A stretch of 64,000 bases of DNA from Escherichia phage vB_EcoM_3HA14. The position numbers and the translations under genes are program-made. Under the pieces are notes generated by a model. It had not been told where the DNA came from. It did no database searches and saw only the letters and a program-made list of their open reading frames with translations. The stretch lies in sequence record MN342151.1; one strand, written 5' to 3'. Position 1 is the first letter of the stretch. Each line of letters starts with the position of its first letter. Positions 59,324 through 60,634 of the stretch are shown piece by piece.

Positions 59324-59402
59324 TGGTACTCCATATCGGATTCGAACCGATACATAACACAGATTTTAAATCTGGCCTCTCTGCCAATTGGAGTAATGGA
59401 GC
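59324..59402 (-). tRNA. tRNA with anticodon UAA (Leu by anticodon), short variable arm
   Basis: anticodon stem CAGA/TCTG, loop TTTAAAA; T-arm ATCGG-TTCGAAT-CCGAT; A73; variable region only about 7 nt. Confidence 0.45.
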
Positions 59403-59404
59403 AT

Positions 59405-59480
59405 TGGCGGGGGATGATGGAATTGAACCATCTTCTTCGATTTCAAAGACCGAGGTTTTAACCTTGTAAACTAATCCCCT
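59405..59480 (-). tRNA. tRNA-Gln (UUG)
   Basis: anticodon stem TCGGT/ATCGA, loop CTTTGAA; T-arm GATGG-TTCAATT-CCATC; G73. Confidence 0.55.
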
Positions 59481-59706
59481 AACGAACTCTTGAAAGAATA
59501 TATGCGTTATTGCAAGTATCCTTATTTTCAGGTAGTGATGTTTCGAAGATAACTTGCTTAAGTTCTAATCCAGCAAAGTTATAAACAACCTTTCTAACTT
59601 CTAACGGGTCACATTGCCAACCAACCGCTATAAAGAAAGTATCTCCAAATCTACCTGTTTCAATCTTGTGGTCATCTTTATGTTTTTCAACTATGAGTTT
59701 ATACAT
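59479..59706 (-). CDS. hypothetical small protein within tRNA array
   Basis: 75 aa ORF filling the gap between two tRNAs; no motif. Confidence 0.3.
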   Translation of the reverse strand: MYKLIVEKHKDDHKIETGRFGDTFFIAVGWQCDPLEVRKVVYNFAGLELKQVIFETSLPENKDTCNNAYILSRVR

Positions 59707-59724
59707 AATGTTACCTATTAAATT

Positions 59725-59801
59725 TGGTGCAGAATAGAGGATTCGAACCCCTAACTAACAACTTCGTAGGTTGCTGCTCTGTCCATTTGAACTAATTCTG
59801 C
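59725..59801 (-). tRNA. tRNA-Arg (ACG)
   Basis: acceptor GCAGAAT/ATTCTGC, anticodon stem GCAAC/GTTGT, loop CTACGAA. Confidence 0.7.
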
Positions 59802-59979
59802 AATATCCTTTTGAGATTCCTGTCTAGCTCTCTTCTTATCTCTTCTGAGAAAGCGTTTACGATGGTCTGTACGCCATTTGTAATAATCTTCTTCACCATC
59901 ATGCGCTGCACAGCAGCCACAACTTGCAATTTCAACTTTACCATGTCTACCATAAGGCTTCATAGGAATCTCCTAAAAT

Positions 59980-60057
59980 TGGTGTTCCAAGACGGATTCG
60001 AACCGTCACTAATACAAGGTTTGAGCTTGCATCCTCTGCCAATTGGGATACTGGAAC
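59980..60057 (-). tRNA. tRNA with anticodon CAA (Leu by anticodon), short variable arm
   Basis: anticodon stem GCAAG/CTTGT, loop CTCAAAC; T-arm GACGG-TTCGAAT-CCGTC; A73; variable region about 6 nt. Confidence 0.45.
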
Positions 60058-60058
60058 T

Positions 60059-60133
60059 TGGTACTCGCTGAAGGACTTGAACCTTCTTCACCAACTTGTA
60101 AGGATGGGGCTTTACCATATAAACTAAGCGAGC
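60059..60133 (-). tRNA. tRNA-Val (UAC)
   Basis: acceptor GCTCGCT/AGCGAGT, anticodon loop CTTACAA, T-arm GAAGG-TTCAAGT-CCTTC. Confidence 0.6.
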
Positions 60134-60228
60134 TTTGAAGAGGTCTGAAGCTGTGCCGCTAACTCAACTCCGTGGAATTTGTTACGGTCTTCAGTTGACT
60201 CAAGCGGTCTTTCACTTGACCTCAAAAT

Positions 60229-60305
60229 TGGTGCTGCTCACAGGACTCGAACCTGCATCTCCATCCTTACAAGGGATGTGCAATAGCCAATTATACGAAA
60301 GCAGC
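60229..60305 (-). tRNA. tRNA-Thr (UGU)
   Basis: anticodon stem CATCC/GGATG, loop CTTGTAA; T-loop TTCGAGT. Confidence 0.65.
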
Positions 60306-60311
60306 ATTATT

Positions 60312-60386
60312 TGGAGCATCCAGAGGGAATCGAACCCTCAACCTCAGTTTGGAAGACTGTAATTTTCCCATTTAAACTATGGATGC
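60312..60386 (-). tRNA. tRNA-Gly (UCC)
   Basis: acceptor GCATCCA/TGGATGC, anticodon loop CTTCCAA, T-arm GAGGG-TTCGATT-CCCTC. Confidence 0.7.
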
Positions 60387-60392
60387 ACTAAT

Positions 60393-60468
60393 TGGTGGAG
60401 AAGCAGGGAATTGAACCCTGTACTTAAGTTTGCAAAACTTATGTTTTAACCATGTAAACTACATCCCC
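60393..60468 (-). tRNA. tRNA-Ala (UGC)
   Basis: G3-U70 wobble pair in acceptor (Ala identity element), anticodon stem TAAGT/ACTTA, loop TTTGCAA. Confidence 0.7.
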
Positions 60469-60474
60469 ATTGTT

Positions 60475-60550
60475 TGGTACAGGTGGAGGGAATTGAACCC
60501 ATCGTCTTACTGATTAAGAGTCAGCCGCATAACCATTTTGCTACACCTGC
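60475..60550 (-). tRNA. tRNA-Lys (CUU)
   Basis: anticodon stem GCTGA/TCAGT, loop CTCTTAA; weak 3-bp T-stem; paralogous to the 61927-62002 tRNA. Confidence 0.5.
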
Positions 60551-60557
60551 ATTAATT

Positions 60558-60634
60558 TGGTACACCTAGAGAGATTCGAACTCACACTGAGCAGATTCTA
60601 AGTCTGCTGCCTCTTCCAATTGGGCTATAGGTGC
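60558..60634 (-). tRNA. tRNA with anticodon UAG (Leu by anticodon), short variable arm
   Basis: anticodon stem GCAGA/TCTGC, loop CTTAGAA; T-loop TTCGAAT; A73; variable region 5 nt. Confidence 0.45.

Follow-up and report, generated by a model that had tools for sequence, protein, structure and literature searches.

Short-arm leucine tRNA genes of an Escherichia phage are best read as compact, type I tRNALeu

Background

Does a tRNA that carries a leucine anticodon and has no long variable arm still insert leucine in a bacterial host? The question is raised by Escherichia phage vB_EcoM_3HA14 (sequence record MN342151.1), of which a stretch of 64,000 nucleotides (nt), hereafter the window, was analyzed: its tRNA cluster contains three genes with the leucine anticodons UAA, CAA and UAG and variable regions of only 5-7 nt. 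A preliminary description of this DNA, made from the sequence alone, regarded bacterial and known phage tRNA-Leu as class II molecules with a long arm and left two readings of the compact genes, namely unusual class I leucine tRNAs or tRNAs whose identity differs from what the anticodon implies, with consequences for decoding. The generalization holds for phage T4, the tRNA-Leu of which has a long arm, but short-arm tRNA-Leu genes are widespread in phages, and a type I tRNALeu is present in the bacterium Streptomyces coelicolor (PMC6614811). We consider it probable, at roughly 0.85, that the three genes encode functional elongator tRNAs that the host's leucyl-tRNA synthetase (LeuRS) leucylates, that is, bacterial tRNALeu in which the variable arm has shrunk to 5-7 nt. 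The evidence comprises the anatomy of the genes, the leucine determinants that they retain, the conservation and covariation of their relatives, and the distribution of the short form across phages.

Three compact tRNA genes

ARAGORN calls tRNA-Leu genes on the minus strand at exactly the three intervals given in the preliminary description (Table 1), and the Rfam tRNA model RF00005, with a gathering score of 29 bits, covers each of them in full length, from model position 1 to 71 (E = 7e-8 to 2e-10). The GenBank records of phages Sf17 and Sf14 list the same three genes as tRNAscan-SE predictions of tRNA-Leu TAA, CAA and TAG, in Sf17 with the same lengths as well; the UAA and CAA genes of the window are identical in both phages, and the UAG gene of Sf14 differs by 1 nt. 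Boundaries and anticodons come out alike with ARAGORN, with Rfam and in the tRNAscan-SE annotation of the two phages, so that the anticodons are not to be placed elsewhere, as the preliminary description had allowed, and a hidden long arm, the other escape that it had named, is ruled out.

Segmentation yields a 7-base-pair (bp) acceptor stem, a 17-nt D arm, a 5-bp anticodon stem and a 5-bp T stem in all three tRNAs, which also have in common the T loop UUCGAAU, the discriminator A73 and an encoded CCA. The D arms are CUCCAAUUGGCAGAGAG (UAA), UCCCAAUUGGCAGAGGA (CAA) and GCCCAAUUGGAAGAGGC (UAG). The anticodon loops, UUUAAAA (UAA), CUCAAAC (CAA) and CUUAGAA (UAG), each with U33 and A37, are those first described, as are A73 and the variable regions, which read GUUAUGU (7 nt, UAA), AUUAGU (6 nt, CAA) and UCAGU (5 nt, UAG). 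A class II tRNA has a variable region of more than 10 nt with a stem-loop, which none of the three possesses; with only 74-76 nt preceding the CCA, a long arm cannot fit. The same tools do detect long arms where these are present, since the two tRNA-Ser genes and the tRNA-Tyr gene of the cluster, which serve as internal controls, were called with theirs.

Leucine identity

The five tRNALeu isoacceptor genes of E. coli K-12 (leuW, leuZ, leuX, leuV and leuU) were segmented in the same way as the phage genes. With the variable region and the anticodon set aside, the core amounts to 66 nt in the three phage tRNAs and in all five E. coli tRNALeu. In both sets the 17-nt D arm follows the layout NNNN-AAUYGG-N-AGA-NNN in the same register, reading G-Y-G-R-A14-A15-U-Y-G18-G19-U-A20a-G-A-C-R-C in E. 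coli and N-Y-C-C-A14-A15-U-U-G18-G19-M-A20a-G-A-G-R-N in the phage, for which RNAalifold gives an alternative reading of the arm with a C13-G pair and a bulged A. The variable region, of 5-7 nt in the phage versus 13-15 nt in E. coli, is the sole difference in architecture.

The leucine determinants of E. coli include A73, A15-U48, G18G19, A20a and the tertiary pairs that join D loop and T loop, and neither the anticodon nor the long variable arm is indispensable for its LeuRS, armless constructs remaining active; a U8-A14 pair has been noted for the Aquifex enzyme (PMC9976931), and A14 has been counted among the E. coli determinants (PMC6614811). In all three phage tRNAs U8-A14 and the Levitt pair A15-U48 are present, the final base of each variable region being U, and G18G19 and A20a occupy the same D-loop places as in E. 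coli tRNALeu, within a D arm of 17 nt whose stem has 3 bp. The elbow pairs G18:U55, G19:C56 and U54:A58 are likewise supported in all three, given the T loop that they share. By the identity rules summarized in PMC9976931, the major determinants of other E. coli synthetases (G3.U70; U73, G73 or C73; anticodon U35U36, C35, G35 or CAU) are absent from the three sequences.

How specific these features are can be judged from phage loci gathered for comparison. Of the tRNALeu from these loci, 146 of 211 short and 12 of 27 long ones unite a Leu-type D arm with A73 and U48, and none of about 1100 tRNAs for other amino acids does; within the window the same combination is found in 3/3 leucine tRNAs and 0/23 others, and these 23 lack the D-arm geometry as such. 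A73 by itself is present in 195 of the 211 short tRNALeu. Isotype scoring by covariance models, which the preliminary description had proposed as a check, has been published for the identical or 1-nt-different genes of Sf14 and places leucine first for all three, with tRNAscan-SE scores of 60.2 for UAA (next Lys, 54.2), 49.1 for CAA (next Lys, 36.1) and 67.4 for UAG (next Ile2, 65.7) (PMC12482277). On these sequence features the three genes are best read as genuine leucine tRNAs in compact (type I) form. The first of the two original readings is thus supported, by the Leu-specific geometry of the D arm, the retention of A73, A15-U48 and G18G19 and the isotype ranking (PMC12482277), and the second, an identity at odds with the anticodon, finds no support. 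Nothing unusual is to be expected for decoding, as UUA, UUG and CUA should still mean leucine.

Conservation and distribution

Of 261 phage records, 248 contain the UAA gene with an identity of 95% or more. Across 164 unique short tRNALeu sequences each stem pair is formed in 88-100% of the members, most with 4-7 pair types (pair 5:68, for example, is CG in 59, GC in 38, UA in 26, AU in 20, UG in 14 and GU in 6), and U8, A14, A15, G18, G19, A20a, U33, A35, U48, the T loop and A73 are conserved at 90% or more. Pairing of the stems in register reaches 97.8% and drops to 32-45% when the 3' partner is slid by 1-3 columns. For 33 diverse members, the three tRNAs of the window among them, RNAalifold predicts a cloverleaf without an extra arm, in which 18 of 21 pairs show compensatory changes. 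This pattern lies far beyond chance: selection maintains the short tRNALeu as tRNAs.

In a blastn search, the segment extending from the UAG to the CAA gene matched tRNA-Leu genes of Mycobacterium, Streptomyces, Rhodococcus, Enterococcus and Klebsiella phages, as well as unannotated stretches of an Enterobacter phage and a Vibrio phage, at 75-83% identity over about 60-90 nt; gaps do not exceed 1-2 nt, so the matched tRNA-Leu genes must be short too. For the UAG tRNA, identity to tRNA-Leu from phages of Mycobacterium, Streptomyces, Rhodococcus and Enterococcus amounts to 80-83% across some 68 nt. In every phage record of Table 1 that has tRNA-Ser and tRNA-Tyr genes, these are long. In IMG/VR at least 120 stretches contain the D-arm string with the T loop 24-54 nt behind it, and in the 80 of them listed all spans are 50-53 nt, so that only the short spacing is seen there. 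ARAGORN called 211 short and 27 long tRNALeu in the gathered loci, together with long forms for 89 of 92 tRNASer and 34 of 34 tRNATyr. Because this first sample of loci had been chosen for the presence of a short tRNALeu, a second was drawn from viral contigs, for which any tRNA that has a GGTTCGAATCC T loop and encodes CCA could serve as the anchor, and the non-anchor tRNAs were counted. Lengths of 80 nt or less were found for 21 of 61 tRNALeu, 0 of 30 tRNASer and 0 of 13 tRNATyr; some tRNALeu forms in this sample measure 79-82 nt.

The short tRNALeu fall into at least three sequence subtypes (that of the window, a T5-like one that has GGAAUUGGCAUAC, and a CAA one that has GGACAAAUUGGUAAAGUC), from which it follows that the arm was probably lost more than once. 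The first, to which we give the working label subtype A, is defined by the D arm N-Y-C-C-AAUUGG-M-AGAG-R-N, a variable region that measures 5-7 nt and has U as its last base, A73 and a leucine anticodon NAA or NAG, and all three tRNAs of the window fit this definition. The exact D-arm string is present in at least 120 viral stretches and about 53 bacterial tRNA-Leu genes, with a short spacing to the T loop among the matches listed. The bacterial genes come from actinobacteria, Planctomycetota, Acidobacteriota, Chryseobacterium and others, some located in arrays of 12-34 tRNAs per 8 kb and some solitary.

Solitary short tRNA-Leu genes (UAA or UAG, 75-77 nt), with no other tRNA within 8 kb, are seen in Mycolicibacterium, Corynebacterium, Pseudonocardia and other actinobacteria and may be either native type I tRNALeu or remnants of prophage attachment sites. 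Enterococcus phage Bop has a tmRNA (ssrA) annotated midway through its tRNA cluster, at positions 6301-6648 of the sequence analyzed, adjoining one short and one long tRNA-Leu gene.

A broader scenario can be put forward tentatively, as a possibility that we hold with little confidence. Compact tRNALeu with the CCAAUUGGCAGAGG D arm might form a lineage of old age and horizontal mobility that circulates among phages of Proteobacteria, Firmicutes and Actinobacteria and bacterial tRNA arrays, and from which Streptomyces and other actinobacteria might have obtained their chromosomal type I tRNALeu. The absence of the arm would then have been positively selected, either since it yields a universal LeuRS substrate in any bacterial host or as an escape from tRNA-targeting defences. 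In infected cells E. coli LeuRS would routinely charge type I tRNALeu, whereas the published view restricts it to type II.

Charging by the host synthetase

By analogy with the cases considered here we infer that the LeuRS of E. coli or Shigella would leucylate the three tRNAs. A functional parallel is a phage-derived tRNALeu (GenBank MF402939.1) with a CGA anticodon, which is reported to decode TCG as leucine in recoded E. coli (PMC13596443). The accession belongs to the T5-like phage OSYSP, and ARAGORN finds only two tRNA-Leu genes in the whole 110.9-kb genome, both of them 77-nt short-arm genes. A short-arm phage tRNALeu is therefore leucylated in E. coli whatever its anticodon, as the properties of LeuRS predict.

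Several observations weigh against this reading. The OSYSP proxy belongs to another sequence subtype, with the T5-like D arm GGAAUUGGCAUAC in place of that of the window, and the sole bacterial type I tRNALeu tested, the tRNALeu(CAA) of S. coelicolor, remained uncharged with E. coli LeuRS (PMC6614811). For the UAG tRNA the isotype score favours leucine over Ile2 by just 1.7 bits (PMC12482277). Mismatches occur atop the anticodon stem of the UAA tRNA (C27.U43) and in the T stem of the UAG tRNA (U50.U64, where related sequences are paired), and the minimum-energy structure of the UAG tRNA is not a cloverleaf (z = -0.67). Relative to the host, the UAG loop has A37 in place of the G37 of leuW, and the CAA loop has C38 in place of A38; modification by the host (m1G37, i6A37) may differ in these altered loops. 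Finally, the view that the arm is lost where it is unconstrained, taken up below, is deduced from the distribution of the short forms.

The variable loop of the S. coelicolor tRNALeu(CAA), read from the mutant names A44C, C45A, A46C, G47U and C48A, is ACAGC with C48 (PMC6614811), whereas U48, which pairs with A15 and is required by E. coli LeuRS, is found in the tRNAs of the window as in E. coli tRNALeu. Going by the sequences, it is plausible that C48 versus U48 explains the negative result with the S. coelicolor tRNA. As the isotype margin of the UAG tRNA is thin, structural determinants were given more weight than isotype scores. Folds of single sequences are judged uninformative for tRNAs, and those of the UAA and CAA tRNAs are near-cloverleaf, with z of about -2.2. 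With A37 instead of G37, no m1G37 is expected in the UAG tRNA; C38 of the CAA loop breaks the motif A36-A37-A38, which has been tied to TrmL and prior i6A37 (PMC9976931). The acceptor stem is closed by G1.U72 in the UAA and UAG tRNAs, as it is in about 45% of the 164 family members (GU 73, GC 73). None of G1.U72, A37, C38, U50.U64 and C27.U43 takes away a leucine determinant.

If the three genes are leucine tRNAs, their RNAs would be excised from the transcript of the cluster with the CCA already encoded, charged by host LeuRS via A73 and the features of the elbow and D loop, and used to decode UUA and UUG (UAA), UUG (CAA), and CUA with its wobble partners (UAG). In E. coli, CTG makes up about half of the leucine codons. 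Leucine codons in the open reading frames (ORFs) of the window that are at least 120 amino acids (aa) long are distributed over TTA (24%), TTG (17%), CTT (27%), CTC (5%), CTA (9%) and CTG (17%), and TTA, TTG and CTA together account for 51%. The tRNAs would serve leucine codons more heavily used in the AT-rich phage than in its host. All three leucine tRNAs of Sf14 have been classed as consistent with codon compensation (PMC12482277).

Why the arm is short

The long variable arm is used by bacterial tyrosyl-tRNA synthetase (TyrRS). It is used by seryl-tRNA synthetase (SerRS) as well, and LeuRS is indifferent to it (PMC9976931). A compact tRNALeu would work because bacterial LeuRS does not read the arm, and the arm of leucine tRNAs would often be lost, and that of serine and tyrosine tRNAs never, because the latter two are used by SerRS and TyrRS. 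In the fast-evolving, size-limited genomes of phages the arm would decay or be trimmed only where no synthetase needs it, so that the leucine arm alone could disappear; the frequencies in the second sample, 21/61 for leucine against 0/43 for serine plus tyrosine, agree with synthetase constraint of this kind. We regard absence of constraint as the best explanation of the short arm.

Another reason for the short arm, fully compatible with leucine identity, would be evasion of defence, in that the compact shape and the altered loops make poor substrates for tRNA-targeting nucleases or toxins of the host or of a competitor and leucine decoding survives an attack on host tRNALeu. We know of no nuclease or toxin that reads the variable arm of tRNALeu, nor does the literature searched yield one; synthetase constraints fully explain the restriction of the pattern to leucine, and the short form is also found alone in actinobacterial chromosomes, where there is no obvious need for evasion. 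In favour of such evasion, phage tRNAs are reported to escape anticodon nucleases via changes in the loop (PMC10264068; PMC12482277), the loops in the window differ from those of the host at three positions (UAG) and two positions (CAA), the occurrence of short leucine tRNAs in at least three subtypes across unrelated phage groups suggests repeated selection, and tRNA arrays bearing them are discussed as putative anti-defence units (PMC12803027). On balance we think evasion unlikely to be what drove the loss of the arm.

Descent from a class I tRNA, with convergence of the D arm on that of tRNALeu, is more doubtful still. The obvious candidate ancestor is tRNATrp, altered from CCA to CAA in the anticodon, which takes a single step, and from G73 to A73. 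In their D-arm string of 13 nt, CCAATTGGCAGAG, and in the GTTCGAATC T loop the phage tRNAs agree with native tRNATrp of Vibrionaceae and other bacteria, 68 of 123 tRNAs in bacterial genomes that match the pattern are tRNATrp, and the anticodon-stem and T-arm sequences of Vibrionaceae-type tRNATrp resemble those of the UAG tRNA of the window. In tRNATrp, however, the motif lies one nucleotide further from position 10 (GCUC-CAAUUGGCA-GAGC), and the Leu-type test of the D arm matches 0/37 phage tRNATrp. In place of the CCA anticodon, G73 and 4-bp D stem of tRNATrp, the tRNAs of the window have UAA, CAA or UAG, A73 and a register that is off by 1 nt; their tryptophan isotype scores, 43.6 (UAG), 15.5 (CAA) and 32.1 (UAA), are far below those for leucine (PMC12482277). 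When cores stripped of anticodon, variable region and discriminator were aligned to 985 unique phage tRNAs, the short leucine tRNAs grouped together and the nearest class outside the group was inconsistent (Lys 12, Thr 11, long Leu 6, Arg 5, Trp 1, of 60), so that overall similarity makes tryptophan the nearest for 1/60. As a leucine marker, CCAATTGGCAGAG followed by GTTCGAATC had to be given up: it is specific in viral contigs, but native tRNATrp supplies 68/123 of the bacterial matches. Since the string is shared, it is the register counted from position 10, together with A73 and U48, that is diagnostic, and not the string alone.

The sharing is exact in the native tRNATrp of Vibrio, Photobacterium, Aliivibrio and their relatives, which have the complete 13-nt string and the T loop of the phage short tRNALeu. 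The D arm of Vibrionaceae tRNATrp is one nucleotide longer than that of E. coli tRNATrp.

That the anticodons mislead, so that the tRNAs carry another amino acid and recode UUA, UUG and CUA or serve some role outside elongation or translation, appears very improbable. The class I shape is atypical for a bacterial tRNALeu, the isotype scores for Ile2 (UAG) and Lys (UAA) are near those for leucine (PMC12482277), and E. coli LeuRS rejected the type I tRNALeu of Streptomyces (PMC6614811). Against this, every E. coli leucine determinant is present and the major determinants of other synthetases are absent, leucine is the top isotype in all three cases (PMC12482277), a short-arm phage tRNALeu inserts leucine in E. 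coli despite a serine anticodon (PMC13596443), and the phage ORFs show ordinary leucine frequencies for the codons concerned. The idea that the genes are decaying, non-functional relics, to which the mismatches in the UAG T stem and UAA anticodon stem, the poor single-sequence fold of the UAG tRNA and a true tRNA remnant nearby might point, can practically be dismissed in view of near-identical sequences in hundreds of Ounavirinae genomes, compensatory changes at almost every stem pair of the family, intact tertiary positions and CCA, and Rfam scores inside the range of the other 23 tRNAs.

The tRNA cluster and its neighbours

The region from 58000 to 63300 of the window, which includes the cluster, aligns from end to end with Shigella phage Sf17 (genus Mooglevirus of the Ounavirinae, or Felix-O1-like myoviruses) at 99.1% identity and matches 304 phage records, chiefly of Escherichia, Salmonella, Shigella, Citrobacter and Erwinia phages. 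The Rfam tRNA model confirms 23 of the tRNAs of the cluster at the gathering threshold; run with an E-value threshold it also puts tRNA-His (49.3 bits) and one tRNA-Met (31.7 bits) above the gathering score, and tRNA-Tyr (22.3 bits) stays under it. This tRNA-Met, one of two, has the anticodon loop CUCAUUA, in which position 37 is U and not a purine, a loop change listed for Sf14 as well (PMC12482277). Neither a LeuRS nor a tRNA-modifying enzyme was seen among the scanned ORFs flanking the cluster.

Directly upstream of the cluster an ORF that runs past the end of the window matches Pfam DUF7788 (E = 9e-45) and, weakly, vWA; its counterpart in Sf17 is annotated as DUF2828. A layout of TROVE plus vWA, a candidate for this ORF, would be like that of Ro60-type RNA-binding proteins. 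The tRNA region of Streptomyces phage Daubenski also contains a 1.6-kb gene for an 'RNA-binding protein', and together the two genes may link phage tRNA clusters to a protein for RNA chaperoning or quality control. Within the cluster, a DUF7217 protein (E = 6e-84), a membrane protein in the annotation of Sf14 and Sf17, is encoded between tRNA-Ser(GCU) and tRNA-Phe. A 70-aa ORF (Sf17_gp24) overlaps tRNA-Arg(ACG) by about 50 nt on the same strand and gave no match in Pfam; it may be an over-call.

Two gaps in the cluster contain further RNA-like signals. In one, of 424 nt, lies a degenerate tRNA-like remnant that ARAGORN does not call and that scores 28.8 bits with the Rfam tRNA model, just below the gathering score of 29; its T arm (GAAGGUUCGAUUCCUUC) is intact and its acceptor stem is absent. 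Some relatives have a 'tRNA-OTHER' or a pseudo-tRNA annotated somewhere within their tRNA cluster. The other gap, of 247 nt, adjoins tRNA-Ile, and a sub-threshold match to the permuted tmRNA model of Rfam (36.5 bits, gathering score 47) extends over this gap and the tRNA. Probably it is the tRNA that produces the match; the gap could nevertheless hold a structured RNA, as the stable RNAs adjoining the tRNA genes of T4 and T5 suggest by analogy.

Table 1. Features of the window, with their coordinates, and lengths of tRNA-Leu genes in the phages compared
Feature	Position	Strand	Length	Source or remark
tRNA-Leu(UAA)	59324-59402	-	79 nt incl. encoded CCA	ARAGORN; Rfam RF00005, 46.9 bits
tRNA-Leu(CAA)	59980-60057	-	78 nt incl. 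encoded CCA	ARAGORN; Rfam RF00005, 44.0 bits
tRNA-Leu(UAG)	60558-60634	-	77 nt incl. encoded CCA	ARAGORN; Rfam RF00005, 56.1 bits
tRNA cluster, 26 genes	58124-63155	- (all)		ARAGORN, Rfam, Sf17 annotation
tRNA-Ser, long arm	58206-58298	-	93 nt	ARAGORN; internal control
tRNA-Ser, long arm	60888-60977	-	90 nt	ARAGORN; internal control
tRNA-Tyr, long arm	62510-62597	-	88 nt	ARAGORN; internal control
DUF7217 protein	58300-59034	-		Pfam
tRNA-Arg(ACG)	59725-59801	-		overlapped by the next ORF
ORF Sf17_gp24	59751-59963	-	70 aa	possible over-call
Permuted tmRNA match	61565-61752	-		Rfam, sub-threshold
tRNA-like remnant	62197-62271	-		Rfam, below gathering score
tRNA-Met(CAU)	62828-62904	-		U at position 37
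DUF7788 ORF	63321-64000	-		runs past window end
Mycobacterium phage Koguma (Bixzunavirus)			tRNA-Leu 76, 75, 74 nt	
Streptomyces phage Daubenski			tRNA-Leu 76, 75 nt	
Enterococcus phage Bop			tRNA-Leu 76 nt; one long, 86 nt	
Erwinia phage Fifi318 (Kolesnikvirus)			three tRNA-Leu, 78-80 nt annotated	77-78 nt by ARAGORN
Klebsiella phage KaOmega			tRNA-Leu 77, 80 nt	
Vibrio phage 1.081.O (KVP40-like)			tRNA-Leu 74, 74 nt	
Lactobacillus phage Bacchae			tRNA-Leu 74, 75, 74 nt	
T5-like phage DT57C			tRNA-Leu 77 nt	
Phage T4			tRNA-Leu 87 nt	long arm

Implications

Type I tRNALeu were known already from mitochondria and from S. coelicolor, and the genes of the window are annotated as tRNA-Leu in hundreds of records. 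In the full-text papers searched, older subscription literature on T5 tRNAs being out of reach, the short arm of tRNALeu is nowhere described as a phage feature or as a trend confined to leucine. The word 'variable' does not occur in the paper on the tRNAs of Sf14 (PMC12482277), and in one mycobacterial paper the variable loop of a tRNALeu(TAG) encoded in a cluster is noted to be short. The phage-wide pattern of short arms in leucine tRNAs only thus appears to be undescribed in the literature searched. The genes of the window are ordinary members of type I tRNALeu, and the compact form, common in phages, is an under-noticed regularity and not an oddity of decoding.

The pattern amounts to a natural experiment that matches the identity rules established in vitro: only leucine, whose synthetase ignores the arm, loses it in phages, in about one third of cases. 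It would imply that, in infected cells, type I tRNALeu is charged alongside type II by enterobacterial LeuRS, which would qualify the published claims that E. coli LeuRS accepts type II only and that Streptomyces is special in having both types within one compartment. For tRNA engineering the short phage genes offer a large natural set of compact leucine acceptors that do not depend on the anticodon, one of which is in use in E. coli with a swapped code. Annotators should not take a short phage tRNA-Leu call for an error, and the broader regularity merits a proper census.

Comparison with known systems

Among the chromosomal tRNALeu of E. coli, leuZ, leuX and leuW have the same anticodons as the three genes of the window, and the UAA loop is identical to that of leuZ. 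The likeness extends to A14 A15 U16 Y17 G18 G19 N20 A20a G21 A22, A73, U48 and the T-loop elbow. The phage tRNAs differ from E. coli tRNALeu (leuZ, leuX, leuW, leuQPV with CAG and leuU with GAG) in having a variable region of 5-7 nt versus a stem-loop of 13-15 nt, A9 instead of G9, C13 instead of G or A at position 13 and, in two of three, G1.U72 instead of G1-C72, and the identity of their cores to the E. coli genes is only 42-62%.

The type I tRNALeu(CAA) of S. coelicolor resembles them in its 5-nt variable loop, in coexisting with type II tRNALeu and in being charged by a bacterial LeuRS (PMC6614811); its loop, A44 C45 A46 G47 C48, is one base off ACAGU, the commonest loop of the phage family, and genomes of Streptomyces and other actinobacteria carry family members with the D arm of the window. 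It differs in C48, in its chromosomal location and in needing features of the leucine-specific domain of Streptomyces LeuRS (PMC6614811). The tRNA-Leu of T5-like phages (DT57C, OSYSP) share with the genes of the window their coliphage origin, a length of 77 nt with CCA, a 5-nt variable region, A73 and the AAUUGG D loop; with a D arm of the form G-R-GGAAUUGGCAUAC that has G13, and with the variable region GUUUU, they are not close homologues. Animal mitochondrial tRNALeu, compared by description only, are also of type I, lack a long arm and have A73 and A14 as main determinants (PMC9976931), but their structures are degenerate and they are charged by a dedicated mitochondrial LeuRS. The Vibrionaceae-type tRNATrp, also a class I tRNA of 77 nt, with the string CCAAUUGGCAGAG and the GUUCGAAUC T loop, is set apart by its CCA anticodon, by G73 and by the shift of the D motif by one nucleotide, which gives a 4-bp D stem and takes it outside the Leu-type geometry. 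A further parallel comes from the laboratory: as summarized in PMC9976931, Larkin et al. (2002) found that a minimalist E. coli tRNALeu without variable and anticodon arms is aminoacylated and edited by LeuRS, given A73 and the contacts of the D loop with the T loop, and the phage genes look like the natural counterpart of such constructs.

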